Shown: positions 6,010 through 51,125, counted from the first letter of the stretch. The stretch: DNA of 52,332 nucleotides from Gammaproteobacteria bacterium (GCA_046566505.1 JBKHWN010000117.1:1-52332); one strand, 5' to 3'. The notes: generated from the letters alone by a model not told the origin. Program-made: numbers and translations.

Positions 6010-6255
6010 ATGAATCCGCTTCTCTCCCAGGGTATCGAACTCATGCTGGTCGGCATGGGTGTCGTGTTCGTCTTTCTGGTGATGCTGGTCGGCGCCGTGA
6101 CATTGATGTCGCAACTGGTTGCCCGGTTCGCGCCGGACGCGCCGCTGGCCGTCACCCCGCGCGGCCCGGTCGCCGCACCGGCCGGGCCGGGCGTCGATGA
6201 CCGGACGCTGGCCGTCATCCACGAGGCGGTGCGCCGCCATCGCGGGCAGGCCTGA
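6010..6255 (+). CDS. oadG: Oxaloacetate decarboxylase gamma subunit
   Basis: MNPLLSQGIELMLVGMGVVFVFLVMLV single-TM N-terminus typical of OadG, directly upstream of oadA/oadB. Start moved to ATG 6010 within the longer track ORF. Confidence 0.75.
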   Translation: MNPLLSQGIELMLVGMGVVFVFLVMLVGAVTLMSQLVARFAPDAPLAVTPRGPVAAPAGPGVDDRTLAVIHEAVRRHRGQA

Positions 6256-6314
6256 TCCGAGCACCCTGACCCCGTCCGTCGACCCGCTGTCTTCTGCGCG
6301 CCCGGAGTAGCCCC

Positions 6315-8099: not shown

Positions 8100-8106
8100 G
8101 GCACCG

Positions 8107-9249
8107 ATGGAAATCCTGCTCAAGCTTTGGCAATCCACCGGCCTGTACCACATGGCGGTCGGGCAGCTGGTGATGATCGTTGTCTGCCTCGGGCTGATCT
8201 ACCTGGCCATCCGCAAGGGGTTCGAGCCGCTGCTGCTGGTGCCGATCGCCTTTGGCGGCCTGCTTGCCAACATTCCGGTCGCCAACATGGCCGAAGGCAC
8301 CGGCTTCCTGCACCTGCTCTATGAAATCGGCCTGCCGACCAGTGTGTTCCCGCTGCTGATTTTCCTCGGCGTCGGCGCGATGACCGATTTCGGGCCGATG
8401 CTGGCCAACCCGCGCACATTGTTGCTGGGTGCCGCCGCGCAGTTCGGCATTTTCGGCACCTTGCTCGGGGCCGTCGCACTCACGGTGTGGGGCGTGCCCG
8501 GCTTCGAGTTCACGATGCAGCAGGCGGCGTCGATCGCCATCATCGGCGGCGCCGACGGCCCGACCTCCATCTACGTGACGGCGCGTCTAGCGCCGGAGCT
8601 GCTCGGGCCGATTGCGGTCGCCGCCTATTCGTACATGGCGCTGGTGCCGCTGATCCAGCCGCCGATCATGCGCGCGCTCACCACCGAGGCCGAGCGCAGG
8701 ATCGTGATGCAGCAACTGCGTCCGGTCGGGCGCACGGAAAAGATCGTGTTCCCGCTGGTGCTGGTGCTGCTGGTCGGTTTCCTGCTGCCGGACGCGGCGC
8801 CGCTGGTGGGCATGTTCGCCTTCGGCAACCTGATGCGGGAGTGTGGTGTCGTCGAGCGTCTGGCAGACACTGCGCGCAACGCGCTGATCAACGTGGTCAC
8901 CATTGCGCTGGGCCTGACGGTTGGTGCCAAGCTCAGTGCCGATTCCTTCCTGCAGCTGACAACGCTGGGCATCATCGTGCTCGGGCTGGTTGCGTTCTCG
9001 CTGGGCACGGCGGCCGGCGTGATCATGGCCAAAATCATGAACCTGTTCTCGACGCAGAAGATCAACCCGCTGATCGGCTCGGCCGGCGTGTCGGCGGTGC
9101 CGATGGCGGCGCGGGTGTCGAACAAGGTCGGCCTGGAGGCGAATCCGCAGAACTTCCTGCTGATGCATGCCATGGGGCCGAACGTGGCCGGCGTGATCGG
9201 CTCGGGCGTGGCGGCGGGGATCCTGCTGACGTTTGCCGGCGGCCGGTAG
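8107..9249 (+). CDS. oadB: Oxaloacetate decarboxylase beta subunit (Na+-translocating membrane subunit)
   Basis: 380-aa polytopic membrane protein. [11 protein letters not shown] and [13 protein letters not shown] motifs are typical of the OadB/GcdB/MmdB family. Confidence 0.95.
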
Positions 9250-9300
9250 CGGCGTCGCGGGTTGCGCTCCGGCAGCGGCGCGCCGCCGTGCGTGCGGGAA

Positions 9301-9334
9301 ACAACCGCAATCGAGAAACAACAGCAATCGAGAA
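9301..9334. repeat. 17-bp tandem direct repeat ACAAC(C/A)GCAATCGAGAA x2
   Basis: Two adjacent copies with one mismatch, read directly. An A/T-richer patch that ends 1 nt from the 3' end of tRNA-Arg(CCU). Confidence 0.8.
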
Positions 9335-9335
9335 A

Positions 9336-9411
9336 TGGTGCCCCGGAGAGGACTTGAACCTCTGACCTTCCCCTTAGGAGGGGGACGCGCTATCCACTGT
9401 GCCACCGGGGC
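9336..9411 (-). tRNA. tRNA-Arg (anticodon CCU)
   Basis: Reverse complement GCCCCGGTGGCACAGTGGATAGCGCG-TCCCC-CTCCTAA-GGGGA..AGAGGTTCAAGTCCTCT-CCGGGGC-ACCA. Confidence 0.95.
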
Positions 9412-9534
9412 GAAGCGCGGCCATTCTAGCGGCGCAAACACAGCGCCGGAACCCGTCGTCGGCGAATTGCCCCTGCGCGTCGTGCGCCGGCGGCGACCGG
9501 CCCGGCGGCGCACGCTATATACTGCCGCGCCCCG

Positions 9535-10173
9535 ATGACCCGGTTTTCCGCGATGCCTGCCGATCCCCTGCTGCGTGCCGCCGGTCTCGTCGCGATCCGC
9601 GACGGGCGCACGCTGTTCGACGGGCTGGATGTCGAAGTGCACGCCGGCGAAGTCGTGCGTGTGGAAGGCCCGAACGGCGCCGGCAAGACCACGTTGCTGC
9701 GCATCCTCTGCGGGCTGGACCAGGATTTCGCCGGCGATATCGCTTTCCCCCGGGCGGACGGTGCCGGGCGCCCCTGGCGTGCCGACGTGCTGTTCCTCGG
9801 TCATTTGCCAGGCCTGAAGCCGACGCTGACCGCCGCCGAGAACCTCGACTGGCTGACCCGTCTGCGCGCCGCCGCGCTGCGCAGCAGTGTCTCCGACGCG
9901 CTGGCGACCGTGGGCCTGGCCGGTTACGAGGACGTGTCCGTCGCGCAGATGTCCGCCGGACAGAAGCGGCGCGTGGCGCTGGCACGGCTGCACCTGGAGC
10001 AGGCGCCGCTGTGGGTGCTGGATGAGCCATTCACCGCCATCGACAAGGACGGCGTCGCTGCGCTGGAAGCCACGCTGGCGCGCCATGCCGAACAAGGTGG
10101 AGCCGTGCTGGTCACCACCCATCACACGCTGGCGATCACGGCCCGACCGTTGCGGCTGGGGGCGGCGGCATGA
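9535..10173 (+). CDS. ccmA: Cytochrome c biogenesis heme-exporter ATP-binding protein
   Basis: Walker A GPNGAGKTTLLR, ABC signature MSAGQKRRVALA, Walker B LWVLDEP. First gene of a ccmABCDE run. Confidence 0.9.
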   Translation: MTRFSAMPADPLLRAAGLVAIRDGRTLFDGLDVEVHAGEVVRVEGPNGAGKTTLLRILCGLDQDFAGDIAFPRADGAGRPWRADVLFLGHLPGLKPTLTAAENLDWLTRLRAAALRSSVSDALATVGLAGYEDVSVAQMSAGQKRRVALARLHLEQAPLWVLDEPFTAIDKDGVAALEATLARHAEQGGAVLVTTHHTLAITARPLRLGAAA

Positions 10174-10838
10174 GTACGCCCGGCGCCCTGTTCCGGCGCG
10201 ACCTCGCGCTCGCCTGGCGTTCGCGCGGCGACCTGGTGAACCCGCTGGGTTTCTTCGTGGTCACGGTCTCGCTGTTCCCGCTGGGCATGTCGCCGGACCC
10301 GGCACTGCTGGCGCGCATTGGGCCGGGGCTGGTCTGGGTGGCGGCGCTGCTCGCCGTGCTGCTCTCCCTGGAGACGCTGTTCCGCAGTGATCGCGACGAC
10401 GGCTCGCTGGAGCAGATGCTGATGTCGCCGGCGCCGTTGTCGCTGCTGGTACTGGCCCGGGTGCTGGCGCACGTGCTGACGGTCGGACTGCCGCTGGTCA
10501 TCGTGGCGCCGGTGCTGGCGCTGATGCTGAACATCCAGGGCGATGCTTTCGGCGCGCTGCTGGCCGGCCTCGCGCTCGGCGTGCCGGTGCTGTGCCTGAT
10601 CGGTGCCATCGGCGCCGCGCTGACCACCGGTTTGTCGCGCGGCGGCGTGCTGGTGGCGCTGATCGTGTTGCCGCTGTACATACCCGTGCTGGTGTTCGGT
10701 GCCGGCGCCGCCGAGGCGGCCGGGCTGGGTATGCCGTACACCGGGCAGCTCGCCATCCTGGGCGCGTTGCTCGCTTCGTCCATCGCGCTGGCGCCTTTCG
10801 CGATCGCGGGAGCGCTGCGCATCAGCGTGAGCCAATGA
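10170..10838 (+). CDS. ccmB: Heme exporter membrane protein CcmB
   Basis: 222-aa polytopic protein with a 4-nt overlap with ccmA. FRSDRDDGSLEQM motif is typical of CcmB. Confidence 0.9.
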   Translation: MSTPGALFRRDLALAWRSRGDLVNPLGFFVVTVSLFPLGMSPDPALLARIGPGLVWVAALLAVLLSLETLFRSDRDDGSLEQMLMSPAPLSLLVLARVLAHVLTVGLPLVIVAPVLALMLNIQGDAFGALLAGLALGVPVLCLIGAIGAALTTGLSRGGVLVALIVLPLYIPVLVFGAGAAEAAGLGMPYTGQLAILGALLASSIALAPFAIAGALRISVSQ

Positions 10839-11593
10839 AAAAGATGTGGGCCTATCTCGAACGACTCTGGCACCGGCTCGGTTCGCCGCGCCACTTCCAC
10901 GATCTCAGCGGCCAGTGGTTGCCCTGGCTGGCGGTTGCCGCGCTGCTGCTGCTTGGCACCGGACTGGTCTGGGGACTGCTGTTCGCACCGGCCGATTACC
11001 AGCAGGGCAACAGCGTCCGCATCATCTACCTGCATGTGCCGGCAGCGAGCCTGGCGCTGAGCGGCTACCTCGCGATGGCCGTGTGCGGCATCGTCGTGCT
11101 GGTCTGGCGCATGAAGATGGCGGAGATCGTGCTGCAGGCGATCGCCGTGCCGGGTGCGGTGCTGTGCGCGATCGCCCTGTTTTCCGGCGCGGTCTGGGGC
11201 AAGCCGACCTGGGGCACCTACTGGTTCTGGGATGCGCGCATCACCTCGATGCTGATCCTGCTGTTCCTGTACGTCGGCATCATCGCGCTGGGCAGCGCCA
11301 TCGCCTCGCCGGTACTGGCAGCGAGGGCGACCAGCGTGCTGGCCATCGTTGGCGCGGTGAACATCCCGATCATCCGGTACTCGGTGGAGTGGTGGAACAC
11401 GCTGCACCAGCCGGCGACGTTCAAGGTTACCGGCAAGTCGGCGATGGCCCCGGAAATGCTGCAGCCGCTGGTCGTCTCTGCGCTGGGCTTCTACGTCTTC
11501 TTCGCGCTGGTGGTCATCCTGCGTACCCGCAACATCATCCTGGAGCGCGAGGCCGGCACCCGCTGGGTGCAGGACCTCGCCGGAGGCAAGTGA
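10835..11593 (+). CDS. ccmC: Heme exporter protein CcmC
   Basis: Start at ATG 10835 overlaps the ccmB stop (ATGA). WGxxWxWD tryptophan-rich motif present as WGTYWFWDARI. Confidence 0.9.
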   Translation: MKKMWAYLERLWHRLGSPRHFHDLSGQWLPWLAVAALLLLGTGLVWGLLFAPADYQQGNSVRIIYLHVPAASLALSGYLAMAVCGIVVLVWRMKMAEIVLQAIAVPGAVLCAIALFSGAVWGKPTWGTYWFWDARITSMLILLFLYVGIIALGSAIASPVLAARATSVLAIVGAVNIPIIRYSVEWWNTLHQPATFKVTGKSAMAPEMLQPLVVSALGFYVFFALVVILRTRNIILEREAGTRWVQDLAGGK

Positions 11594-11594
11594 C

Positions 11595-11810
11595 GTGGAA
11601 TTCGCATCCCTGGCCGATGTGCTGCACATGGACGGGCACGGTTTCTACGTCTGGCTGTCCTACGGGGTGACCGTGCTGGCGCTGGTCACCCTGGTAGTGA
11701 TCCCGCTCATGGCCCGGCGCCGCCTGTTGCGCGATATTGCCGGCCGCACCCGCCGGGACGCCGCCCGGGGGCGCAGCCGGCAGCCATCCGATTCAGCCGT
11801 CGAGGAGTAA
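11595..11810 (+). CDS. ccmD: Heme exporter protein CcmD
   Basis: Small single-TM protein ([20 protein letters not shown]) between ccmC and ccmE. GTG start. Confidence 0.75.
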
Positions 11811-11815
11811 CCGTC

Positions 11816-12286
11816 ATGCATCCCGTTCGTCGCCAACGCCTGTTGATCGTGCTGGGCGTGCTCGCCCTGGTCGGCATCGCGGTGGGGCTGGCCAGTTGGG
11901 CGCTCAGCGAGAACATCAACGCCTTCTACTCGCCGGAGGACATCGTCAGCGGCAAGGCTCCGGTGGACCGCCGGATCCGCGTCGGCGGGCTGGTCAAGGA
12001 CGGCTCGGTGCGGCGCGCGACGGACTCGCTGCACGTCGAGTTCGAGGTCACCGACGGCGCGGCCACGGTGCTGGTCACCTACGAGGGCATCCTGCCGGAC
12101 CTGTTCCGCGAGGGGCAGGGCATCCTGGCCACCGGGGTGCTGAAGGCGGATGGCGTGGTGCAGGCGCAGGAAGTGCTGGCCAAGCACGACGAGAACTACA
12201 TGCCCCGGGAAGTGAAGGACGCGCTGGAGAAGACCGGACACCCGATGGGTGGCGGCGCGGCCGCTGCAGGGCCGGCGGCGTACTGA
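11816..12286 (+). CDS. ccmE: Cytochrome c-type biogenesis heme chaperone CcmE
   Basis: N-terminal anchor, then [34 protein letters not shown] with the heme-binding His context. Confidence 0.9.
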
Positions 12287-12418
12287 TCGCCCCGGTGGTG
12301 GCTGCCCCCATGATCGCCGAATAGGTAATTGCCGATACCGATCGTCCGACAATTGGACGAATAACTCCGTGATCCGCTAGAGTTGCCGGACAGTCCGTCA
12401 TTTCTGCCCGGAATCCCC

Positions 12419-13120
12419 ATGTCTTCATTCAAAGCGCAGGAAAGCCTGTCCGAGCAGATCGCCCAGCATCTGGCGCGCCAGATCATCAGCGGCGACCTGC
12501 TGGCCGGCGACCGCATCCAGGAACTGCGCATCGCCGGCGAACTGGAGGTCAGCCGAGGCTCGGTGCGCGAGGCGCTGCTCATCCTCGAACGCTGGTACCT
12601 GATCGACATCCTGCCGCGGCGCGGTGCGGTGGTGAAGGACATGTCCGAGGAGCACGTGCGCTCGCTGTACGAGTTCATGTCGGTGCTGTTCAACTTCATC
12701 GCGCGCAAGGCGATCGAGGAGGTGGACGAGGAACAACTGGCGCCGTTCATCGAGTTGATCCGTGTCATGCAGGCGCAGGTGGCGGCGCGCCAGGTCGACG
12801 AGTTCTACGAGAGCGCCTTCCAGTACCTTGGCTATGCGTCGCGTTTCGCGGCCAACAGTTTCGTCGAGGAAATCCTCGACAACATGCAGCCGGCGATCCG
12901 TCGCGCGTTCTACCTGGCGCTGCACATCAACCGCGACGAGATGCAGTCGTCGCTGGCCTTCTTCAAGGCGCTGATCGAGAGCCTGCTGCAGCAGGATGTC
13001 GAGGCGGCGCGGGCGGTGATCGACGAGTTCGTCGGCCACCAGCGGGCGATCGTGCTGGATTCGATCATGCGCGCCCGGATGATCGAGGAAGCCTGGAACC
13101 AGCGCCACCGCCGGTCCTGA
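12419..13120 (+). CDS. GntR-family transcriptional regulator (FadR/FCD-type C-terminal domain)
   Basis: N-terminal wHTH SLSEQIAQHLARQIISGDLLAGDRIQELRIAGELEVSRGSVREAL followed by an all-helical C-terminal domain. ATG 12419 preferred over TTG 12383. Confidence 0.85.
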   Translation: MSSFKAQESLSEQIAQHLARQIISGDLLAGDRIQELRIAGELEVSRGSVREALLILERWYLIDILPRRGAVVKDMSEEHVRSLYEFMSVLFNFIARKAIEEVDEEQLAPFIELIRVMQAQVAARQVDEFYESAFQYLGYASRFAANSFVEEILDNMQPAIRRAFYLALHINRDEMQSSLAFFKALIESLLQQDVEAARAVIDEFVGHQRAIVLDSIMRARMIEEAWNQRHRRS

Positions 13121-13197
13121 TCCGCGGCAGCAGGCAAGGTTGACAAGGCCGGGTTCGAACCCGGTCGGCGGCACGGCACCACTTCCGGGGGATTTCC

Positions 13198-13746
13198 ATG
13201 TTGGCAAGACTGTTCAGGCTGGTGCGCAGCGGGTCCGCGATGCCGTCGGCGCTCGCTTTTTTCGCCGTGCTTTTCCTGGTGTCGCAGGTATCGATGATGG
13301 TGGTGCTGGCGCCGGTGGGCGTCGCGCACTTCATCGAAATGCAGACGACGCTGTCGCCCGCGCGTTTCGCCACGCTGGTCGAAAACATGTACCAGCGGGG
13401 CGTCGAGACCGCGTACATCGCGCACTTCTACTACGACTGGCTGCATCCGCTCTGGTACGGCGGGCTGCTGGCGCTGCTCATGGCCCGGGGCTTCGAGCGA
13501 CAGGCCGTGCCGGCATCGAGGGACTGGCTGTTGCTGGCGCCGTTCGCGGCCGGCCTTGCGGACCTGGTCGAAAACTCGCTGCACCTTTACATGGTGGTCG
13601 ACACCGCGAACATCTCGTCGCCGCTGGTGCTGGTGGCCAATGGCGCGGCACTGTGCAAGTGGGCGGTCATCACCGTCTGCGTCACGACGGCGCTGGTGAT
13701 GTTGCTGAAGCCGGCGGCGCCGGCTCGAAAAAATCCGCCCACATGA
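13198..13746 (+). CDS. Hypothetical membrane protein
   Basis: 182-aa ORF with several hydrophobic segments. No family recognised. Its 3' end overlaps the cysZ 3' end convergently. Confidence 0.5.
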   Translation: MLARLFRLVRSGSAMPSALAFFAVLFLVSQVSMMVVLAPVGVAHFIEMQTTLSPARFATLVENMYQRGVETAYIAHFYYDWLHPLWYGGLLALLMARGFERQAVPASRDWLLLAPFAAGLADLVENSLHLYMVVDTANISSPLVLVANGAALCKWAVITVCVTTALVMLLKPAAPARKNPPT

Positions 13747-14458
13747 TGGTGGCCGCGCAGACCGCGACCGGCATGATCACGAAGTTCACCACCGGCACCA
13801 GGGTCAGCCCGAACACGGCGGCACCAAAAACCAGGACGTCGGTCCGTCGCGTGTGCAGGCGGGCGATCATGCTCTCGAAGTCCACGCCGAGGTTGTCGGC
13901 CGGGTAGTCCAGGTAGGTCACCGCCAGCATCCAGGCGCCAAACAGGAACCACAGCAGAGGCAGCATGCCGTTCAGCAACGGGATCCACCCGATCAGCAGC
14001 GTGAACAGGCCCAGTCCCAGCGCCCGCACGGCCCAGTAGCGCAGTGCCTGCCATGAACGGGCCAGCGTCCGCCTGATCATCCTCGCCAGCGGTACGGCCG
14101 GCACGGGACGCCCCGTGTGCCGTGCCCAGGCCCGTTCGGCCAGCAGGCCGTTGATCGGCGCGGCGATGAGGTGCAGCACGCCGGTGAACACCCAGGCGGC
14201 CGCCAGCAGCAGCAACAGCAGTGCCAGCAGTTGCGCCAGGCCGGCCAGCAAATCGACGGCCCCGGCCAGCCAGCCGGGGGCGCCGGCAGTCAGTGCCGAC
14301 AGGCCCGCGAGCAGTTCGCCGGCCACGCCATGCAGCCAGCCGATGGCCAGCCCGAAGATCAGGATGTTGGCGGCCAGCGGCAGCAGTGCCCAGGGCCAGA
14401 GGCCGGGTTGGCGGACCAGCCGGGCACCGGCGGCCAGGGTGTCGAGCGGGGCATGCAT
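13682..14458 (-). CDS. cysZ: Sulfate transporter CysZ (EI24 family)
   Basis: Collinear with E. coli CysZ from memory: AAPINGLLAE, LLWFLFGAWMLAVTYLDYPADN, NFVIMPVAVCAATIMW. Start placed at MHAPLDTLAAG (14458). Confidence 0.85.
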   Translation of the reverse strand: MHAPLDTLAAGARLVRQPGLWPWALLPLAANILIFGLAIGWLHGVAGELLAGLSALTAGAPGWLAGAVDLLAGLAQLLALLLLLLAAAWVFTGVLHLIAAPINGLLAERAWARHTGRPVPAVPLARMIRRTLARSWQALRYWAVRALGLGLFTLLIGWIPLLNGMLPLLWFLFGAWMLAVTYLDYPADNLGVDFESMIARLHTRRTDVLVFGAAVFGLTLVPVVNFVIMPVAVCAATIMWADFFEPAPPASATSPAPS

Positions 14459-44205: not shown

Positions 44206-44226
44206 ACCGGGACCGGGAATAAAAAA

Positions 44227-44255
44227 GGCCCGGCGCAATCGCGCCGGGCCTTTTT
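44227..44255. terminator. Bidirectional intrinsic terminator (fumA / ancestral tRNA-Asn 3' end)
   Basis: AAAAAA-GGCCCGGCGC-aatc-GCGCCGGGCC-TTTTT. Confidence 0.75.
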
Positions 44256-44256
44256 G

Positions 44257-44305
44257 TTTGGCTCCGCCTGCTGGGCTCGAACCAGCGACCCACGGATTAA
44301 CAGTC
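44257..44305. repeat. Left att repeat (orphan 3' part of tRNA-Asn)
   Basis: TTTGGCTCCGCCTGCTGGGCTCGAACCAGCGACCCACGGATTAACAGTC, identical to 51048-51096. The tRNA 5' half is missing here. Confidence 0.9.
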
Positions 44306-44317
44306 GTCTCAGGGCGT

Positions 44318-44344
44318 GTTTGCGGCGGTTTGCGCCCGTTTGCG
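44318..44344. repeat. Three 10-bp-phased GTTTGCG repeats next to the left att core
   Basis: GTTTGCG at 44318, 44328 and 44338, with a fourth at 44401. A related GTTTGCA is at 50960 near the right end. Confidence 0.6.
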
Positions 44345-44423
44345 AGCGGGTGAAATCTATTGTTTTATCATTGACTTAGCGTTGTTCGTCGCCCTACCGT
44401 GTTTGCGTTCGTTTTCATTCGCC

Positions 44424-44445
44424 CGCCTACATGGCGCCTACATGG
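44424..44445. repeat. Tandem 11-bp repeat CGCCTACATGG x2 (candidate arm-type integrase site)
   Basis: Perfect tandem copies 28 nt upstream of the int start. The same pair, with one mismatch, is at 50973-50994 in the same orientation. Confidence 0.55.
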
Positions 44446-44472
44446 GCGGAAATATGACGCGAGGGGCACGCC

Positions 44473-45738
44473 GTGAAACTCACTAAGAAACTGATAGAGG
44501 CAACCGCGCCGGGCGCGCGCGTCCTGTTCCTCCGGGACGATGACGTGCCGGGCCTGGCTGTTCGTATCACCCCGGCAGGGCACCGGGCGTTCGTGTTCGA
44601 GAAGCGGGTAAACGGCCGTAACCGGCGGATGACCCTGGGCACCTACGGGGCGTTGACCCTGGAGCAGGCCCGGCAGTTGGCCCGGGTCACGGCAGGCGAG
44701 ATTGCCGGCGGCGCCGATCCGGTGGCGGAGAAACGGAAGCGGGCTCACCGGGCGGTAACGCTGGGGGAGGTTTTCGAGGAATACCTGCGAGTGCGAGAGT
44801 TGCGCCCCCGAACGATTCAGGACATGCGCTGCGCGCTGCGGGATTTGTCGGACTGGACCGCGCGCCCGGTGACGGAAATCACCCGAGACATGGTGACCGC
44901 CCGGCATATGCGCCTCGGGGAGCGGAGCAAGGCCCGTGCGAACGGGACCATGCGCTACCTGCGGGCGTGGCTCAATTTTGCGGCGGAGCGCTACGCGACA
45001 ACGGACGGCCCATTGCTGACTCACAACCCTGTTAAGCGCTTGTCCGCTGTGCGCGGGTGGTATCGGGTTGACCGGCGCCGGACCTTCATTAAACCGCACG
45101 AGCTGCGTCCGTGGATGCTGGCCGTGCAAGGCTTGGGCGAGGTCCCGGACCGTGCACCCGGTACAGGCTGGGACATGCCAAAGCTGCGGCATGGTGACAT
45201 GCAACGGGACTTCTACATGCTGTTGGCCCTGACCGGCCTGCGGCGTAGCGAGGCGCTGGGGTTGCGTTGGGTAGACGTGGACTTTGCCGGCCGCACCCTC
45301 ACCGTGCGAGGCACGAAAAACCACCGGGACCATACATTGCCGCTGCCGGGCTACCTGGTCGATATGCTGCGCGAGCGGAAGGCGCAGGCTGGCAGCGCGT
45401 TCGTGTTCTCAGAGAGCGATGGCCAGCGGCTGCAGAACCTGCGTTACGGGCTAGAGAGGATCGAAAAGGTAAGCGGGGTGAAGTTCTGTCCGCATGACCT
45501 GCGCCGGACGTTCGCCACCGTCGCGGAGAGCCTGGACCTGCCGGCCTATGCCCTCAAACACCTGTTGAACCATTCCAGCGGGGCGGATGTGACGGCGGGC
45601 TATGTCGTGGTCACCACCGAGCGCCTGCGCGCGCCGATGGAGCGGATATGCGACTACATGCTGAAAACGGGCGGGCTGCGCGAGGTCGCGCCTGTGGTGA
45701 GCCTGCAGGCACGGAGGGTGGGCGGCGATGGGGCATGA
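44473..45738 (+). CDS. int: Tyrosine site-specific integrase, P4-like (DUF4102 arm-binding N-terminus)
   Basis: LTKKLIEA..FLRDDDVPGLAVRITPAGHRAFVFEKRVNGRNRRMTLG N-terminal domain. Catalytic-domain motifs LALTGLRRSEALGLRW, HDLRRTF, LNHS. GTG start with GAGGGG 6 nt upstream. Confidence 0.92.
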   Translation: MKLTKKLIEATAPGARVLFLRDDDVPGLAVRITPAGHRAFVFEKRVNGRNRRMTLGTYGALTLEQARQLARVTAGEIAGGADPVAEKRKRAHRAVTLGEVFEEYLRVRELRPRTIQDMRCALRDLSDWTARPVTEITRDMVTARHMRLGERSKARANGTMRYLRAWLNFAAERYATTDGPLLTHNPVKRLSAVRGWYRVDRRRTFIKPHELRPWMLAVQGLGEVPDRAPGTGWDMPKLRHGDMQRDFYMLLALTGLRRSEALGLRWVDVDFAGRTLTVRGTKNHRDHTLPLPGYLVDMLRERKAQAGSAFVFSESDGQRLQNLRYGLERIEKVSGVKFCPHDLRRTFATVAESLDLPAYALKHLLNHSSGADVTAGYVVVTTERLRAPMERICDYMLKTGGLREVAPVVSLQARRVGGDGA

Positions 45739-46531
45739 TTCGCGGGAGATTGTGGCGGCAGAGGTATGCAGGTGGGCCCGGGACATGCCCGAGCAGTTGC
45801 GCGCACATATCGAGCGGCGAGCGGGGCGGCTATCGGCGCGCGAGCTTGTGGAGGTGCTGCCTACGCTCGAGAAAACGGCGGAGCATTGGCGGCGAGTTGT
45901 CGCGTGGTGGCCGGATGGTGGGGCGTTTCTGTTTGACCTGCTGGCTCGATCGGAAAGCATGTATGCGGCGGCAGGGGGGGATGGCCGGCACGAGGGCGCC
46001 AAGCGGGACGTGCGCTACCAGCACTTGGGGGTGGCGGCACGAAAGCTGGATGCCGCGGTGAAGTCCTTTCAGGTGGCACTGGAGAAAATGCCGGATGCAC
46101 GGATGATGTTGCATGAGGCGGGCGAGAGCGTTGCGCAAGACGCGGATGATCGGGCGGCGCTGGAGGCATTGCGCGCACTGGCCGGCGGTGCATGGCGTGG
46201 GCGACTGCAGCGCGCGCTTTCAATCCTGGACGGAACGGAAAACGAGGGGCTGGCCGTGGGTAAGTTGGGCTCTCTCGAACGGGTCAAAGCGCGTTCTGCC
46301 CTGCGCAAACTGCCCACGAGGGGTGGCTATGTTCGTCGCACGATTGTCGTGGCCTGTTGCCGCTGGGAGGCACGCGAGCGTAGCGAGGGGCGGGAGCCTG
46401 GCGATTGGCCGATGGTTGCACTTTCCGAGATATTGTCCGCGGCCGGTGTCGAACGGGTAGGCGTGAAGAATCTGGACGATATCCGCCGCGAGGAGCGCCC
46501 CAAGGTGACTGCGGCATTTGAGCAGTCTTGA
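45728..46531 (+). CDS. Hypothetical protein (267 aa), island cargo of unknown function
   Basis: ATG overlaps the int stop by 11 nt. Coding-like codon bias. Mostly helical-looking sequence. No motif recognised. Confidence 0.6.
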   Translation: MGHDSREIVAAEVCRWARDMPEQLRAHIERRAGRLSARELVEVLPTLEKTAEHWRRVVAWWPDGGAFLFDLLARSESMYAAAGGDGRHEGAKRDVRYQHLGVAARKLDAAVKSFQVALEKMPDARMMLHEAGESVAQDADDRAALEALRALAGGAWRGRLQRALSILDGTENEGLAVGKLGSLERVKARSALRKLPTRGGYVRRTIVVACCRWEARERSEGREPGDWPMVALSEILSAAGVERVGVKNLDDIRREERPKVTAAFEQS

Positions 46532-46632
46532 CCCCGCCCCGGGATTCGCGCTCTGCCTAAATTGCGAATCACGGTTATCCACCGCTAACGGACGCGCAAT
46601 GCTGCCCACGTATTCAGACACGAGGGCAGTCC

Positions 46633-46851
46633 ATGAAATCCCCCACCGTTACCCTGCCGGCGCTCCTGACCCAACGCGAGGTCGCGGAGTACCTGCACAA
46701 ATCCGAGGCATGGCTGGAGCGCGCCCGCGTTGAAGGCGGCGGCCCTAAGTTCATCAAGTGCGGGCGGGCGGTGCGCTACCGCGCCGATGACCTGCAGGCC
46801 TGGATGGAAGATAACGCGCGGCAGTCGACCGCGGAGGCGCGCCGCGCATGA
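46633..46851 (+). CDS. alpA: AlpA-family / excisionase-like HTH regulator
   Basis: 72 aa. LLTQREVAEYLHKSEAWLERARVEGGGPKFIKCGRAVRYRADDLQAWM matches the HTH_17/AlpA pattern. Stop overlaps the primase start. Confidence 0.8.
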   Translation: MKSPTVTLPALLTQREVAEYLHKSEAWLERARVEGGGPKFIKCGRAVRYRADDLQAWMEDNARQSTAEARRA

Positions 46852-48233
46852 CGGACGCCGGCACCCCGGGAGCGCAACGCAAGGCGCGAACGGTTGCCGC
46901 GGGCGCCGTGCCGTCTACCGAGTTCGCCCTGGCGCAGACCTTCGCGCAGGCATTTGCCGACCGGTTGCGCTATGACCACACGGCCGGCGCTTGGTACGTC
47001 TGGAGCGGGACTTGCTGGCGCCGCGATACCGTGGGGAAGGCGCACGACATGGCGCGCGTTCACTGCCTGCTGGCGTCTCAGGGGACGGAAAAGCACCAAC
47101 GTGCGGCCACCGTGCGCAACGTGCTCGAATTGGCGAGTCGGATGGATCCCCTCGCCGTTGACCATGGCGCATGGGATAAGGACCCATGGCTGCTGGGGAC
47201 GCCGGGCGGGATTGTCGACCTGCGCACCGGAGCCTTGCGCAGGCCGGCGCCGGAAGCGCTGATTACCAAGGTCACGGCGGTTGCACCTGCCGCACCGGGC
47301 GTTGTGCCGGCTCTATGGACGGAGTTCCTTTCGTTTGTGGCGGACGATGACCGAGAGCGGCCGTTGTTCCTCCAGCGCTTCCTCGGTTACTGCCTCACGG
47401 GCGACGTGCGCGAACACGTCCTGATGTTCCTGTGGGGGGGCGGAGGTAACGGCAAGTCAGTGCTGCTTAACACGGTCCTGCACATTCTGGCGGACTATGG
47501 GCGCGTTTCTCCGGTCCAGACGTTCACGTCCGGGGCTCAGGATCGGCACCCGGTCGACAAGGCCATGCTTGCCGGCGCGCGCCTGGTGGCGGCAAACGAA
47601 ACCGAGCAGGGGCGGGCATGGGCGGAGGCTGAGTTGAAGTCACTCACGGGCGGTGATCCGATAACCGCCCGTTTCATGCACAAGAATCCGTTTACCTTCC
47701 TGCCGACCTTCAAGCTGCTGATTGTCGGGAACCACCGTCCGACCATTCAGAGCGTGGACGATGCAATGCGGCGGCGCCTCGTGCTGGTGCCGTTCAATCG
47801 GAAGCCGGCCGCTCCTGATCCTGAGTTAGAGGCCAAGCTGCGTGCAGAGGCGCCTGCAATTCTCCGCTGGATGATCGACGGTTGCCTGGACTGGCAGGAG
47901 CACGGGCTACCACGGCCGGCAGCGATTGCCGCGGCAACGGCGGACTATTTCGAGGCTCAGGATTCTGTCGGGCTTTGGCTGTCCGAGTGCTGCGAGGTCG
48001 GCCCGACCATGCACGATTCCAGCCGGTCCCTGTTTCAAAGTTGGGAAGCATTCCAGCACGCGGCTGGCGAGCATCCAGGCTCTGGCAAGTCGCTGACCGA
48101 GGCCTTGAAGAAACGCGGCTTTGAGCAGTTCCGTAGCAGTCTTTACCGCGGATTCCGTGGGCTCCGCGTGCGTGCGTCCGGTGTAAGCGATCCGCGCGAC
48201 CGTGACGGGTGGGTGACGCATGATGACGCATGA
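46848..48233 (+). CDS. Phage/plasmid primase, P4 family (D5-like helicase C-terminal domain)
   Basis: FLGYCLTGDVREHVLMFLWGGGGNGKSVLLN Walker A, ANETEQGRAW, LKSLTGGDPITARFMHKNPFTFLPTFKLLIVGNHRP. Typical of the COG3378/TIGR01613-type domain. Confidence 0.9.
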   Translation: MTDAGTPGAQRKARTVAAGAVPSTEFALAQTFAQAFADRLRYDHTAGAWYVWSGTCWRRDTVGKAHDMARVHCLLASQGTEKHQRAATVRNVLELASRMDPLAVDHGAWDKDPWLLGTPGGIVDLRTGALRRPAPEALITKVTAVAPAAPGVVPALWTEFLSFVADDDRERPLFLQRFLGYCLTGDVREHVLMFLWGGGGNGKSVLLNTVLHILADYGRVSPVQTFTSGAQDRHPVDKAMLAGARLVAANETEQGRAWAEAELKSLTGGDPITARFMHKNPFTFLPTFKLLIVGNHRPTIQSVDDAMRRRLVLVPFNRKPAAPDPELEAKLRAEAPAILRWMIDGCLDWQEHGLPRPAAIAAATADYFEAQDSVGLWLSECCEVGPTMHDSSRSLFQSWEAFQHAAGEHPGSGKSLTEALKKRGFEQFRSSLYRGFRGLRVRASGVSDPRDRDGWVTHDDA

Positions 48234-48402
48234 CGTGAGCCAACCCGTCACTGCGCAAGCGGCGGTATTTACTGCGATTTTCGTCCGTGCGCTGCCGTTT
48301 ATGACGGGTGTGACGGGTTATCGGGGGCAATTCGTTAACGCGCGCGTGCGCGCACACGCGGGACTTTTGCCTAGTACCCGTCACAACCCGTCATTCCGTC
48401 AC
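48202..48402. repeat. Iteron cluster (TGACGGGT / ACCCGTCA), candidate replication origin of the island
   Basis: TGACGGGT at 48203, 48302 and 48311. ACCCGTCA at 48243, 48376 and 48386, plus CCGTCA at 48396 (10-bp phasing). TGACGCA variants at 48214 and 48224. Alternating GC palindrome at 48338-48360 between the opposed arms. Confidence 0.5.
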
Positions 48403-48757
48403 TGTGAGCGAACGGCCGTGCGCATTGTCCTGCCGGCCGCTGTTCGTATCGCGCCGCGCAGGTTGGCCGGCAGGACAGGGCGCATCCCCCCCCCGCCCCC
48501 GGTCGCGGCTCCCTCCGCAGGCACTACCCGGGCATGGGGAATTAAGTCCGTGTTTTCGCCCCATATACCGGCATCCCTATGGGGGATTCCGACCTATTCA
48601 CGATTGGCCCGGCCTGGCGGTGCCGGCTCTTGTGCGGCTATCCGGTCCGCGCTTGAGGAATACCGCTTGTACCGGCCCGGCGGGTGCCGGGCCTGCGATG
48701 GCTGCCACTCCTGCGCAGGCGAAACCCGCCACCCTTTTCCCAACGGAGCGTTGAACG

Positions 48758-49465
48758 ATGCAAACCGACAATGACCTGGCGCCACTGCTGGCGCCCCGCA
48801 CGGCGGCCGACGCTGCCGACAACATCAATACCCTGCAGGCGCTCTATGAGGCGCAAGGTCGCGTCTTGGCAGCATTGCAGGCGGAACGGCGAGACGTGCT
48901 GTTGCATGGCACCGACGATGCCCTCGCGGCCCACGATGCGGAGATTCGCGCGGCGGAGGTATACCGGGAGCGCTGTGCTGCAGCGGTGCAGGCGTTGCGT
49001 GAGCGCGAGGCCGAATTGCGGCGAACGGAGCGGCAAGCTGCCGTGGCTGCACGGGTGAGGGAGGCGGCGCAGGCGCGGGTCCGTGGGGTGGAGATTTACC
49101 ACGAGTTTGACCGCAAGGCCCGCGAGTTGCGGGAGCTTGTCGAGGAGTTGCGGAGCGTTCACCAGGTCATCGAGCAGGCGCGCGCTGCCGCTGACTCTGC
49201 AGGCGTGCCGTGCAATGTGTCTCTGCCGGCAGCGGACTTTCACGTCCCTGACCGCCATGAGGAGTTCACTACGGAAACTCGTGGGCCTGGCATTTATGAC
49301 GCGCACGGTCGCCCGGTTGGTCGGGCGGGTGAAAAGGCCCCCGAGGTGCGCGCTGTTCGCCATACGCGCCTTGTGCGTGGCCGGCGCCCGGCAGACCTGA
49401 CCGCCTGTGAAATCGTGCTGCCGGATCCGATGGACGCACGTATGTCGATCCTGCGGCAGGGCTGA
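48758..49465 (+). CDS. Hypothetical protein with long coiled-coil-like N-terminal half (235 aa)
   Basis: Heptad-like, Ala/Arg/Glu-rich residues ~20-140 (LQALYEAQGRVLAALQAERRDVL..RELRELVEELRSVHQVIEQAR). No family recognised. Confidence 0.6.
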   Translation: MQTDNDLAPLLAPRTAADAADNINTLQALYEAQGRVLAALQAERRDVLLHGTDDALAAHDAEIRAAEVYRERCAAAVQALREREAELRRTERQAAVAARVREAAQARVRGVEIYHEFDRKARELRELVEELRSVHQVIEQARAAADSAGVPCNVSLPAADFHVPDRHEEFTTETRGPGIYDAHGRPVGRAGEKAPEVRAVRHTRLVRGRRPADLTACEIVLPDPMDARMSILRQG

Positions 49466-49476
49466 GGCTCCCCTCC

Positions 49477-49962
49477 GTGAATGACAACCCCGGCGAGGTA
49501 ACGACCGACGCGCTTGCTGTGCTGTTGGGCGTTACCGCGCGCACGGTGACCGAGTTGGGGCGCCGCGGTGTGATTCCCCGGGGCTCACGCCGGGGGCGCT
49601 GGCCCGTTTCGCAGTGTGTGCCGGCCTATTGCGCTCACCTGCGCGAGCACGCGGCGGGCCGCGCCGGGATCGACGATGACGGGGAGCCCTTGGACCTGGC
49701 CACTGAGCGGGCAAAGCTGGCCCGTGCCCAAAGGTTGAAGTTGGACATGGATGCTGCGCGAGCGCGTGGCGAGTTGGTCGACGCTGAACACGTGCGCGTG
49801 CGCCTGACCGCGATGGTCGCTCAGGCGCGGAACCAGCTATTGGCAGTGCCTGGCAAGGCCAAGGCGATCGTGCCGGCGCTTACTGTGCGAGATGTTGAGG
49901 CGATCGAGGCGCTAATAACCGAAACCCTGGAGGGGCTGGCAAATGCAACCATCAACCCGTGA
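49477..49962 (+). CDS. Small terminase (Nu1-like) / packaging-redirection protein homologue
   Basis: N-terminal HTH (LAVLLGVTARTVTELGRRGVIPRG) then ERAKLARAQRLKLDMDAARARGELVDAEHV, which parallels lambda Nu1 (ERHRLTRAQADAQELKNA..) from memory. GTG start. Confidence 0.6.
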   Translation: MNDNPGEVTTDALAVLLGVTARTVTELGRRGVIPRGSRRGRWPVSQCVPAYCAHLREHAAGRAGIDDDGEPLDLATERAKLARAQRLKLDMDAARARGELVDAEHVRVRLTAMVAQARNQLLAVPGKAKAIVPALTVRDVEAIEALITETLEGLANATINP

Positions 49963-50467
49963 GCAGTTGGAAACGGTGCGCGCTGGGCTGGCGCACTATG
50001 AGTCGGTCGCGGCGCCGGCATATGAGAGCGTCCGGCTGTTCTATGAGCAGCACTGCCACCAGGACCCCCGCCGGCTGCCTGTGGGTGTGCGCCGGCAAGC
50101 GGAGCAGGACGCGCTCCGGGCGTTCTACATGATCGAGGTGCAGCGTCGACTAGCACGTGCCAGCGGTTGCGAGGGCGATGGCCTGCTGGCCATCCTGCAG
50201 GAGACGGTCGCTGCAGTGCTCGAATGGTTGGAAACGGGCAATCCCGTGCCGGCCTATGATTTGCGCGATCGTTTCGACCTGGAGAATGCCGCCTTAGTCG
50301 ATCGGACGCGCGGCACCCTGCAGGGCGTGCTGGACGATTCGCTGCGCCTAGCACACGAGGTCAAGGGCGACCTGGACCGGGAGGCAATTTTTCGGGCGGG
50401 CGTTTCCCCCATCCGTGCCCGCGTGCGTGTCCTGCTGGCTGACTTGGCTTTCTTCCGGGTCGGTTGA
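49943..50467 (+). CDS. Hypothetical protein (174 aa)
   Basis: Overlaps the TerS-like gene by 20 nt. Strong G/C third-position bias. No motif recognised. Confidence 0.6.
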   Translation: MQPSTREQLETVRAGLAHYESVAAPAYESVRLFYEQHCHQDPRRLPVGVRRQAEQDALRAFYMIEVQRRLARASGCEGDGLLAILQETVAAVLEWLETGNPVPAYDLRDRFDLENAALVDRTRGTLQGVLDDSLRLAHEVKGDLDREAIFRAGVSPIRARVRVLLADLAFFRVG

Positions 50468-50972
50468 CGCTGGGGGCGCGGCCAACGTCCCGTCAGGAGC
50501 ATGGCGAGCGCGCCCGACACGGCTCCGCCTATGTAGGTCGCCAGTTGCAGGGCGACGTCTGCCGGCACTTCCAGGGTTAGGGTTACGGGGTCGGCCATAG
50601 TTCGATCCTCGGTTGCTGTTCGCGCGCATGGTGCCGGGAGCGCGGTGAGTGACCGTGTATCCGGCCGACCTAGTGTCCCGTCACGACTGCGACATATCCG
50701 CACGGGGTTTCCCATCCGAGCGGCGGCCCAACTTCGCCTGCCCGACGCGATGCCGCAACCTGTGACCATTCCTCGCCGGGCGCGCCGAATTGCGCCCATT
50801 GTCGGCGGTATGCCTACGGCTCGGTTGTTGCGTTTTTCTCACACGGACCGGTAGCGCCGACCTGCCTTGCTGCCGATGGCGCGCGGGCGCGGCAGCGCTT
50901 TGGGGCACATTGGGATAGGGATGGGGTGGATTCGCCCGAACGGGCCTTGCCGTCTGTCGGTTTGCAATCGGG

Positions 50973-50994
50973 CGCCTACATGGCGCCTACACGG
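50973..50994. repeat. Tandem 11-bp repeat CGCCTACATGG-CGCCTACACGG (candidate arm-type integrase site, right arm)
   Basis: Same unit and orientation as 44424-44445. Lies 54 nt from the right att repeat. Confidence 0.55.
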
Positions 50995-51005
50995 CCGTGC
51001 CGGGG

Positions 51006-51041
51006 CACAAAAAGTAAGGGGGCGCTAACCAGCGCCCCCTT
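51006..51041 (-). terminator. Island-borne intrinsic terminator now serving tRNA-Asn
   Basis: AAGGGGGCGCT-aacc-AGCGCCCCCTT. On the minus strand it is followed by ACTTTTTGTG. Lies inside the island, 9 nt beyond the tRNA 3' end. Confidence 0.6.
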
Positions 51042-51047
51042 GTCTTA

Positions 51048-51096
51048 TTTGGCTCCGCCTGCTGGGCTCGAACCAGCGACCCACGGATTAACAGTC
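51048..51096. repeat. Right att repeat (inside the intact tRNA-Asn)
   Basis: Identical 49-mer to 44257-44305. Confidence 0.9.
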
Positions 51097-51125
51097 CGTT
51101 GCTCTACCGACTGAGCTAAGGCGGA
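51050..51125 (-). tRNA. tRNA-Asn (anticodon GUU)
   Basis: Reverse complement TCCGCCTTAGCTCAGTCGGTAGAGCA-ACGGA-CTGTTAA-TCCGT-GGGTC-GCTGG-TTCGAGC-CCAGC-AGGCGGA-G-CCA. Confidence 0.95.

Follow-up and report, generated by a model that had tools for sequence, protein, structure and literature searches.

A 6.8-kb element integrated in a tRNA-Asn gene resembles a minimal PICI-type phage satellite with a Nu1-like small terminase

The window, the whole 52,332-nucleotide stretch of DNA analysed here, comes from a bacterium of 66.6% GC and contains a compact element in a tRNA-Asn gene, between fumA and an aminotransferase gene and not downstream of fis. The 6.8-kb element is enclosed by direct repeats (att cores) at 44257–44305 and 51048–51096 (spacing 6791 bp), which are identical over 49 nt, as the original prediction had it, and extend to 52 nt with one mismatch. 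ARAGORN and Rfam place an intact tRNA-Asn(GTT), the integration target, at 51050–51125 on the minus strand; the right repeat therefore opens with the final 2 nt of the 5' anticodon stem and closes 2 nt beyond CCA. The left repeat, an orphan 3' half of tRNA-Asn, directly follows the fumA terminator (44222–44256), a strong hairpin with a U-run (−31.8 kcal/mol, z −5.0). The tRNA calls and the hairpin agree with the predicted intact tRNA on the right and orphan half beside the fumA terminator on the left.

Arm-type integrase sites lie on the plus strand at 44424–44448 (left; two tandem copies of GCCTACATGG, 11-bp spacing) and at 50973–50997 (right; GCCTACATGG and GCCTACACGG). Specifically, a count of the motif GCCTACAYGG gives four sites in the element versus 0.15 expected across the whole window, and the left sites are invariant in relatives L002, L006, L007 and L135. 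Read from the sequence, integration is established as a tyrosine-recombinase crossover in a 49-bp core, which corresponds to the tRNA-Asn 3' half. An element-borne bidirectional terminator (51014–51043; −23.5 kcal/mol, z −4.8), kept at the L135 junction described below, stands in for the fumA terminator as the terminator of tRNA-Asn.

The element contains seven co-oriented ORFs, all intact and closely packed, with overlaps of 11 nt (int/p267), 4 nt (alpA/helicase) and 20 nt (terS/p174), in line with the predicted 6.8 kb or so of co-oriented, tight or overlapping genes. HMMs confirm four of them: the integrase, the AlpA-like regulator, the SF3 helicase and the small terminase. The proteins of 267, 235 and 174 aa stay below the thresholds of Pfam, PHROGs, NCBIfam and PADLOC (sub-threshold matches only, E 3e-4 or weaker) and have at most six relatives among 5.8 billion sequences; the original prediction had likewise counted three of seven genes without recognisable function. 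All seven ORFs that it listed are present, but it overlooked a probable eighth gene on the minus strand (50254–50598). Also as predicted, profile searches of Pfam, PHROGs, NCBIfam and PADLOC found no capsid, tail, large terminase (TerL) or lysis gene in the element. Pfam, PHROGs and NCBIfam gave no match to a capsid, scaffold or protease gene, to a portal, holin, head-tail connector or tail gene, or to a relaxase, oriT or partition gene, and PADLOC matches none of the element's proteins to defence genes.

The first gene (44473–45738, plus strand) encodes a tyrosine integrase with an N-terminal arm-DNA-binding domain (Arm-DNA-bind_3 and Phage_integrase; PF13356 and PF00589) that matches phrog_1 at 3e-56. 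It had been called P4-type; it shares the architecture of P4 Int, including the arm-binding domain, at ~25% identity, but nothing in the element is P4-specific. The gene for p267 (45728–46531, plus strand) overlaps int, and its all-helical product has no family match and an unusable AF2 model (pLDDT 49). Only six clusters in 5.8e9 proteins and one more relative in 1.84e9 representatives were found; in L054 a relative is accompanied by int and an HTH_17 gene. In position, p267 corresponds to the 'integrase-overlapping gene' (iolg) of PICMIs. Position and co-occurrence make it a candidate accessory factor for excision or regulation.

The 101-bp spacer between p267 and alpA contains a conserved 9-bp inverted repeat (GGGATTCGC / GCGAATCNC; 46541–46571). 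The spacer is nearly invariant, even in a lineage with 63–86% protein identity, and the inverted repeat, which folds weakly better than shuffles, is a candidate operator of the alpA-helicase operon. The predicted AlpA-like regulator/excisionase (46633–46851, plus strand) is borne out by matches to HTH_17 (PF12728, 6.8e-10) and phrog_66 ('excisionase and transcriptional regulator'). It is not Phage_AlpA (PF05930) and has no BLAST similarity to P4 AlpA/ORF88.

The next gene (46848–48233, plus strand) encodes an SF3 replicative helicase/origin-binding protein with D5_N and DUF5906 domains, and matches TIGR01613 ('P4-family primase C-terminal') at 253 bits (cut-off 108.7). It aligns to positions 338–765 of the 772-position phrog_6088 profile and to residues 413–643 of P4 alpha (25% identity over 242 aa, E 4e-10), the helicase domain alone aligning. 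No primase domain was found with Pfam, PHROGs and NCBIfam profiles or in the P4 alpha alignment. The predicted P4-family primase/helicase is thus right for its C-terminal helicase part, which matches P4-alpha-type proteins, but not for a primase.

The block between the helicase and p235 genes (48234–48757), the 520-bp iteron-rich non-coding block of the original prediction, is indeed non-coding: the relatives differ in it by indels whose lengths are indivisible by 3, and no codon bias is visible in GC3. Motif clustering places a putative replication origin at 48202–48394, with six CCCGTCAY iterons in both orientations (six copies in 193 bp versus 13 across the 52-kb window). The iterons flank a GC-rich palindrome (48341–48360), and the origin begins within the 3' end of the helicase gene. 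A joint swap in variant L002 covers both the iterons (GGGACAG there) and the helicase C-terminus, with the remaining genes 91–100% identical; the helicase-iteron module is exchanged as a functional unit. Folding and variant comparison show that 48419–48484 is occupied by a 20-bp inverted repeat, which forms a hairpin of −49.4 kcal/mol, and then by a poly-C tract, the length of which differs among variants.

The packaging operon begins with a conserved non-coding leader (48485–48757, plus strand), with conserved blocks in the window, L002 and L007. The leader is a candidate late promoter and/or cos/pac packaging recognition region; it does not resemble the sequences that precede phage TerS genes, and a cos/pac site was not located in that comparison. 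The following gene encodes p235 (48758–49465, plus strand), for which AF2 (pLDDT 75) gives the expected coiled coil, a hairpin of residues 16–148, and a small conserved C-terminal domain. Structure searches gave no match at E<0.01, and IMG/VR contains no p235 relative. A p235 homologue lies directly upstream of an orphan TerS in L054, L010 and L136–138. The pair is found on four backbones with different integrases and replicases, and p235 and TerS therefore form a conserved cassette.

The small terminase subunit (49477–49962, plus strand) is Nu1-like with an N-terminal HTH. It matches phrog_57 at 1.6e-29 over its full length (residues 2–159), beyond the HTH. Both this call and that of the replicase (D5_N, DUF5906, TIGR01613) survive HMM verification. 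TerS has no match to Pfam Phage_Nu1 (PF07471) at E<=0.01, and its homologues in L054 and L010 reach 28.5 and 22 bits, below the cut-off of 30. Of 193 TerS homologues, 155 (80%) are immediately upstream of a gpA-type TerL; these partners have GpA_ATPase and GpA_nuclease domains, and the portal is Phage_portal_2 (lambda-family). The expected helper is therefore a lambda-like phage. The predicted Nu1-like TerS thus holds as a terminase by phrog_57, but it falls below PF07471, and its Nu1 character comes from the sub-threshold matches of its homologues and from gpA synteny. The orphan homologues number 31 of 193, and many are in 8–10 kb islands bounded by tRNA-derived repeats.

The last co-oriented ORF encodes the helical protein p174 (49943–50467, plus strand), and its overlap with terS probably reflects translational coupling. 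p174 falls in three clusters in 5.8e9 proteins, and its positional counterparts in L054 and L136 have no detectable homology to it. The arrangement shows a three-gene operon, p235-terS-p174, with a TerS in the family that partners lambda gpA-type large terminases. Convergent with p174 on the minus strand is a candidate gene for a small membrane peptide (50254–50598), with its RBS and start conserved in four variants. The conserved part, the first 35–45 residues, contains one hydrophobic helix. The ORF has no family match and 14 synonymous versus 7 non-synonymous codon changes and is probably the eighth gene of the element.

The seven-gene set recurs at 6.5–6.8 kb in at least five independent Logan assemblies and in the 63–86% identical sister lineage, which sits in the 3' half of a tRNA with a CAT anticodon, not tRNA-Asn. 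In a JGI metagenome contig, L135, a relative (85–89% identical) with intact terS and p174 has its right end joined through a single 49-bp core to its left end. This join appears to be a circle, concatemer or tandem junction; instead of a circle it could reflect a tandem in the chromosome or a chimeric assembly, and its two ends overlap at only 89.6% identity. Of the junctions for which read mining was originally proposed, an attP-type or tandem one exists in this metagenome contig of a relative; sequence searches found no empty attB. No relative lies inside a larger prophage, and the element is not a fragment of one. Relative L006 adjoins Lamassu-like genes, and the Fulvimonas relative L010 carries a tape-measure-domain protein. 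No helper phage was identified, including within the 52-kb window, and identity to the closest TerS of a phage does not exceed 43%. No virion-derived sequence of the element was found, and IMG/VR has no close TerS relative; its contigs >30 kb with a TerS of the same family are mostly 34–45 kb.

Scored here from Pfam, PHROGs and NCBIfam families against the SatelliteFinder definition (PMC10085698), the element has four of the five PICI core components, namely integrase, regulator, primase-replicase-type gene (helicase part only) and small terminase. Capsid morphogenesis is absent, as are the forbidden components (tail, holin, portal, head-tail connector). Because it has no capsid-morphogenesis gene, the element falls into 'type B', which makes up 74% of catalogued PICIs (PMC10085698). 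For the functional hallmarks of a PICI, namely induction, packaging and high-frequency transfer by a helper phage, the attP-type junction in L135 is indirect evidence only. Like the PICIs of Proteobacteria, it has co-oriented int, alpA-type regulator, replicase-type gene with adjacent ori and terS module, no structural or lysis genes, and site-specific integration with direct repeats. It differs in its size (6.8 kb and 7–8 genes versus a PICI median of 9.5 kb and 15 proteins), in the missing capsid-morphogenesis gene and primase domain, in a host that is neither Enterobacteriaceae nor Pasteurellaceae, and in its TerS, which belongs to the lambda Nu1/gpA-partner family and follows a conserved coiled-coil protein without counterpart in described PICIs.

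The gene content also agrees with the PICMI model, in which int, alpA (PF05930 or PF12728) and primase (DUF3987 or DUF5906) are co-localised (PMC10803314); here the families are PF12728 and DUF5906. PICMIs of Vibrionaceae are likewise ~6 kb, with int, an int-overlapping ORF, alpA, a DUF5906 'primase' and two or three unknown genes. Neither they nor the element have capsid-remodelling genes, and concatemer packaging in full-size heads is therefore the likely mode; such packaging of 6-kb satellites is documented (PMC10803314, PMC9618062). In contrast, PICMIs integrate beside fis and explicitly lack terS, sid and ppi homologues (PMC10803314), whereas the element uses tRNA genes as targets and has a TerS cassette. 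Marine VEIMEs (virion-encapsidated integrative mobile elements; PMC9618062) are similarly small and integrase-bearing; some have primase/helicase, AlpA and TerS homologues, lack capsid genes and are packaged as concatemers. VEIMEs are defined by virion recovery, whereas the element is known from sequence alone, and hosts and gene families differ.

P4 shares an arm-binding-domain integrase that inserts at a tRNA 3' end, the alpha helicase domain, a three-gene late operon with similar gene sizes, and short iterons that face both ways immediately 3' of the replicase gene (8-bp type-1 repeats of crr after alpha). The element differs in having no Sid, Psu, delta, epsilon, cI or alpha primase domain and in carrying a TerS, while P4 has none and uses a P2-type cos. 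Of the seven core components that SatelliteFinder sets for P4, the element has three at most: int, an AlpA-type regulator recognised only by its fold, and a portion of alpha. Pfam and PHROGs gave no match to psu, delta, sid or epsilon, and hhalign probabilities did not exceed 4%, with 0.35% for p235 versus Sid and 4% for p174 versus Psu. A P4-like identity was rejected on the absence of Sid, Psu, delta and epsilon and on the partial, distant alpha match, and a cfPICI identity on the absence of an own capsid, portal, head-tail adaptors and TerL. Of the predicted PICI/P4-like architecture, the PICI-like half stands and the P4-like half does not. By its gene content the element would be a PICI-like (type B) minimal satellite with a backbone that is also PICMI-like, a known kind and not a new one.

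We consider it likely that the element is a helper-dependent PICI-type phage satellite reduced to about eight genes; helper dependence itself we infer. The originally proposed satellite reading is strengthened by HMM-verified genes, a discrete recurring unit, a second tRNA target, the L135 junction and the lack of any larger prophage. An unlikely alternative is a non-phage integrative element (a small replicative genomic island or integrative plasmid) whose transfer, if there is any, takes place without encapsidation and whose TerS-like protein is a co-opted MerR/HTH transcription or excision factor. The N-terminus of TerS does have the HTH_17-type fold common to AlpA and excisionases, the annotation 'MerR family regulator' is given to some homologues from Fusobacterium phages, and the searches run found no helper, cos site or virion evidence. 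However, the phrog_57 match is not confined to the HTH, 80% of the homologues adjoin a gpA TerL, orphan TerS genes occur in many independent small tRNA islands, as packaging hijackers would predict, and relaxase, oriT and partition gene are absent.

Even less probable is an island mainly for defence or cargo, selected for its unknown genes or its small membrane peptide, while the phage-like genes do no more than maintain it. Defence genes are frequent behind terS in satellites (PMC10085698), the slot of the convergent membrane-peptide ORF, and the Lamassu-like neighbours of L006 fit such a role, but PADLOC matches no protein and the coding capacity of about eight genes is nearly all core int/rep/packaging. 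This reading complements the satellite reading and does not replace it. Most improbable is a larger lambda-like prophage that has decayed down to int, terS and a replication gene. The genes for TerS and the SF3 helicase are of phage type, and L010 has its tape-measure domain; yet every ORF is intact, the genes are packed tightly, the 49-bp repeats are identical, the same content recurs at the same size in the assemblies and the sister lineage, the latter in a different tRNA, the L135 junction exists, the helicase-iteron module is swapped as a functional unit, and no relative sits within a larger prophage.

For the favoured helper-dependent satellite, the life cycle would start when a lambda-like helper (gpA terminase, lambda-family portal, ~34–45 kb) infects the cell or is induced. 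A helper signal would turn on the alpA-helicase operon, and AlpA, Int and probably p267 would excise the element. The SF3 helicase would melt the iteron origin, and host primase and polymerase would copy the circle into multimers. The satellite TerS would bind a satellite-specific site and recruit the helper TerL, and p235, possibly with p174, may act at the packaging step, e.g., by blocking or out-competing the helper Nu1 or by bridging to gpA. With a unit of only 6.8 kb and no gene recognisable as setting capsid size, a helper head of normal dimensions would be filled by five or six copies joined head to tail; experiments have shown this for PICMIs and marine VEIMEs. What p235, p174 and p267 are proposed to do draws on position and co-occurrence only. 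A more speculative proposal, less likely than not, is that p235, possibly with p174, is an undescribed packaging-redirection factor, the obligate partner of a satellite Nu1-type TerS that captures lambda-like gpA terminases, and that the cassette marks an unrecognised clade of minimal satellites (6.8–10 kb) in environmental Proteobacteria, spreading as concatemers without capsid remodelling.

The element leaves the current picture of satellites unchanged. It is close to the smallest gene set that still bears its own terminase small subunit, is intermediate between PICMIs (no terS) and classical PICIs (terS and capsid remodelling), and helps to define the minimum for parasitising a lambda-type packaging motor. 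Because the p235-TerS cassette is kept on four unrelated backbones, p235 stands out as a clear candidate for a function in hijacking or interference that would be new. The 31 orphans among the 193 homologues suggest that islands bounded by tRNA sequences and bearing an orphan Nu1-like TerS are found repeatedly in Beta- and Gammaproteobacteria, and such islands may supply satellites from beyond the enteric and marine hosts that have been studied well.

The element is bounded by direct repeats derived from a tRNA gene. The repeat finder returned two direct copies of 52 nt that differ at one position and agree perfectly across 49 nt (44257-44305 and 51048-51096); they are spaced 6791 bp apart. 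Both ARAGORN and Rfam located a tRNA-Asn(GTT) gene at 51050-51125, on the minus strand. Within this tRNA, the right repeat thus reaches from the end of the 5' anticodon stem to slightly beyond CCA; the left copy is an orphan. Directly before the orphan repeat, the fumA stop is followed by a strong hairpin (-31.8 kcal/mol, z -5.0) that is bidirectional and has an A-run as well as a U-run. The element has a hairpin terminator of its own at 51014-51043 (-23.5 kcal/mol, z -4.8), which occupies the corresponding place after the intact tRNA. The perfect 49-bp repeats, the intact tRNA-Asn on the right and the orphan half beside the fumA terminator are therefore as the original prediction described them.

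Near each element end, GCCTACAYGG occurs as a tandem pair 11 bp apart (four copies, versus 0.15 expected). These repeats are unchanged across all relatives and are the expected arm-type integrase sites. The sequence places integration at the tRNA core, with these predicted arm sites. Elsewhere the window has housekeeping genes (oxaloacetate decarboxylase, ccm, SMC), and no TerL or portal gene was found inside or outside the element within the 52 kb. Neither of two alternative FumA starts gave a record in exact-protein look-ups, and the exact 74-nt pattern of the empty attB junction had no match in metagenome contigs. No Rfam family was found inside the element.

All seven co-oriented ORFs that had been called are present, with overlaps of 11, 4 and 20 nt. 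The integrase has Arm-DNA-bind_3 and Phage_integrase domains; its assignment as P4-type holds for domain architecture, at only ~25% identity to P4 Int. The AlpA-like regulator (72 aa) matches HTH_17 and phrog_66 (“excisionase and transcriptional regulator”). It is thus AlpA-like by fold, but it does not match PF05930 and has no BLAST similarity to P4 ORF88. The 461-aa protein, predicted as a P4-family primase/helicase, contains D5_N and DUF5906 and matches TIGR01613 at 253 bits (cut-off 108.7). Its alignment is limited to positions 338-765 in the 772-position primase PHROG profile and to residues 413-643 in P4 alpha. Because these matches are confined to the C-terminal part, it is an SF3 helicase and origin-binding protein; the helicase part of the call stands, while the primase domain is absent. 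Virion genes are absent from the element. PADLOC was negative for all element proteins. The products of 267, 235 and 174 aa (p267, p235 and p174) have no above-threshold match in Pfam, PHROGs, NCBIfam or PADLOC, with sub-threshold matches only (E 3e-4 or weaker).

The block at 48234-48757 is non-coding and rich in iterons, as predicted. GC content is flat by codon position and indels among relatives are not multiples of 3, and a 184-aa pipeline ORF in 48220-48774 was rejected on the same grounds. Six CCCGTCAY iterons lie within 193 bp in both orientations, flanking a GC palindrome; the whole 52-kb window has 13 copies, versus 5.5 expected by chance. The layout parallels that of P4, in which crr has 8-bp type-1 repeats just downstream of alpha. 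In one variant of the element (L002/L003), the iterons are replaced by GGGACAG instead of GTGACGGG (L002 3880-4200, compared with window 48150-48400). The helicase of this variant is 85% identical to that of the window, with its last ~20 residues replaced, and its other genes are 97-100% (int, alpA, p235, terS) or 91-93% (p267, p174) identical. Joint replacement of the helicase C-terminus and the iterons is what a replicase-origin specificity pair predicts. The element has a helicase-iteron module, and the comparison indicates that replicase-origin specificity was exchanged by recombination.

Other non-coding features were also compared. The p267-alpA spacer is nearly unchanged even in a divergent lineage and holds a 9-bp inverted repeat, a candidate operator; GGGATTC was rejected as a shared operator motif because it is not enriched. 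A search for cos or pac sites by blastn-short, with three non-coding regions against the fetched TerS-bearing loci, gave chance 13-19-mers only. A poly-C tract at 48485-48500, just after a 20-bp inverted repeat, is C9 in the window and C5 in L002; it lies in the packaging-operon leader and may be prone to slippage.

The 161-aa TerS matches phrog_57 (“terminase small subunit”) along its whole length (1.6e-29). We gathered 193 homologues from species-representative genomes, IMG/VR and metagenomes: 155 are immediately upstream of a large terminase gene, 31 are orphans and 7 are truncated at a contig end. The partner TerL contains GpA_ATPase and GpA_nuclease; the portal belongs to the lambda family. 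The window protein falls below the family threshold of PF07471, and its close homologues have sub-threshold Phage_Nu1 matches. Considering these matches and the gpA partners, the predicted name “Nu1-like” is apt functionally, although not by PF07471 membership. A PDB sequence search with TerS returned nothing. IMG/VR contigs longer than 30 kb that carry the TerS family are mostly 34-45 kb.

For many orphan copies, a tRNA gene, an integrase gene or both are only a few kb away. The four orphan-TerS islands examined are 7.9-9.7 kb long with tRNA-derived repeats at their bounds, at tRNA-Phe (Fulvimonas), tRNA-Asn (a Burkholderiaceae MAG and Thiobacillus) and tRNA-Leu (Azonexus). Several orphan TerS proteins are 59-82% identical to phage TerS, which indicates that TerS has been captured repeatedly. 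The islands in the Thiobacillus, Burkholderiaceae and Azonexus MAGs (L025, L042 and L045; 7.9-9.2 kb, tRNA-Asn or tRNA-Leu repeats) have TerS proteins 59-71% identical to phage TerS; these suggest independent captures and point to candidate helper lineages. The window TerS clade differs: its nearest relatives (59%, 53-55%) are orphans without exception, the closest phage TerS reaches no more than 43% identity, and the cognate helper is unsampled. The closest named relative of the int, alpA and TerS genes is in Fulvimonas; nothing relevant on PICIs in Xanthomonadales-type hosts came up in a literature search.

The p235 gene accompanies orphan TerS genes on several backbones. For each of p267, p235 and p174, 5.8 billion proteins yielded six clusters at most. 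When HMMER was run with a p267 profile across the full set of 1.84 billion representatives, one clear relative was added, in a tRNA-Thr island (L054) with an unrelated integrase and a Toprim/AAA_25 replicase. The gene order of this island nonetheless matches: int is followed by a p267 homologue with 35% identity, then by an HTH_17 gene, a p235 homologue (32%, E 5e-13) and TerS (58%). A p235 homologue is also directly upstream of orphan TerS in the Fulvimonas island (hhalign probability 98.6%) and in three loci next to tRNA-Arg (L136-138; E 1e-21). No p235 relative was found at any locus with TerS followed by TerL, or in IMG/VR. Thus, p235-TerS is a satellite-specific cassette, present on four backbones.

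In agreement with the predicted coiled coil, the AlphaFold2 model of p235 (pLDDT 75) contains a confident helical hairpin (residues 16-148); its C-terminal beta region is predicted weakly. Foldseek against PDB and BFVD gave no match at E<0.01 and a PDB sequence search returned nothing. P4 Sid, Psu and cII were tried by hhalign as counterparts of the unknown proteins, with negative results. The p267 model is unusable (pLDDT 49). p267, with its 11-nt int overlap, resembles the integrase-overlapping gene of PICMIs by position; the PICMI gene is needed for excision (PMC10803314). p174 is confined to the element's own family, and positional counterparts elsewhere have no detectable homology to it.

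The Fulvimonas yonginensis island (L010; NZ_JBBBNY010000002.1, 4511-14289) is 9.7 kb long, has 47-bp tRNA-Phe repeats and carries int, alpA, an AAA_25 helicase, the p235 homologue and TerS. A further gene at 11416-13164 encodes a protein of 582 aa with a tape-measure (TMP_3) domain, which is not a usual cargo of satellite-like islands.

A small minus-strand ORF (50254-50598), convergent with p174, is plausibly an eighth gene. Its RBS (GAGGA) and ATG are conserved in four variants, and the window and L002 differ by 14 synonymous versus 7 non-synonymous codon changes. It has no family match; the N-terminus, MADPVTLTLEVPADVALQLATYIGGAVSGALAMLL, forms one hydrophobic helix, and the product may be an accessory, toxin or exclusion peptide that acts at the membrane. 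In satellites, this slot is often taken by accessory or defence genes (PMC10085698). At 3400-3700 on the minus strand of a JGI metagenome contig (L135), the small ORF has a tandem PRQL x5 expansion and an altered hydrophobic segment.

The exact TerS protein is present on contigs of five sequencing runs, with an identical gene set wherever the contig extends. A divergent sister lineage, complete in L007 and ending at alpA in L006, keeps gene content and order, with identities of 86% (int), 84% (helicase), 80% (TerS) and 57-64% (p267, p235 and p174). It is bounded by a tRNA 3' half with a CAT anticodon instead of tRNA-Asn (L006 8530-8570, L007 1-50), so target specificity has switched between close integrases. 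The neighbours in L006 are Lamassu-like genes (CTD7/MC3/LmuB_C), which may be a second island inserted at that tRNA.

Two kinds of contig could be read as excised circles. The Logan contigs of 6.5-6.8 kb were discounted: by hand-checked coordinates, one element variant (L001) ends exactly 30 nt inside each repeat, as expected from a k=31 de Bruijn graph break at a 49-bp repeat. The L007 ends differ from this pattern. The 7043-bp contig L135 (JGI 3300048587, Ga0498925_0035862) is a circular permutation of a relative at 85-89% nucleotide identity. Specifically, it runs from helicase through p235, terS, p174 (the latter two intact), the right arm sites, the terminator, one 49-bp core, the left end, int, a p267-like gene and alpA to helicase, with right end joined to left end at 3960-4240. 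Such a junction can only arise via site-specific recombination at the predicted boundaries; its source could be a circle, a concatemer or else a tandem insertion. The contig ends (1-221 and 6823-7043) overlap by 221 nt at only 89.6% identity; L135 therefore mixes two variants, being either a heterogeneous tandem or an assembly chimera, and does not tell circle, concatemer and tandem apart.

Compared by definition with the PICI model of SatelliteFinder (int, regulator, primase-replicase, capsid morphogenesis, terS; PMC10085698), the element has four of the five components and zero forbidden ones. It is on this comparison a putative PICI type B, the commonest class (PMC10085698), and is not a cfPICI. 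The P4-like architecture in the original prediction is not borne out. The backbone resembles a PICMI plus a packaging cassette, but the element lies outside PICMI sensu stricto, as it lacks a fis site and has terS.

We consider it likely that the element is a satellite; confidence in the particular roles given to p235, p174 and p267 is much lower. A helper cue would switch on alpA; Int and AlpA, perhaps with p267, would excise the element, and the SF3 helicase would replicate it with host primase. TerS belongs to the family with gpA partners and is encoded in an operon with two family-specific genes. It would steer the helper gpA terminase to satellite DNA, and p235 and/or p174 would act at this step. 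No size-redirection gene was recognisable in the element, and 5-6 copies of the 6.79-kb unit make 34-41 kb, which matches helper genome sizes. Thus, packaging of concatemers into unmodified heads would be most economical, as documented for PICMIs (PMC10803314) and VEIMEs (PMC9618062).

The element is of a known kind and unusually small among PICI-type satellites. Two points are modestly new: the cassette of p235 and TerS is conserved, and the evidence points to a wider set of tRNA islands in environmental Proteobacteria that carry an orphan Nu1-like TerS.
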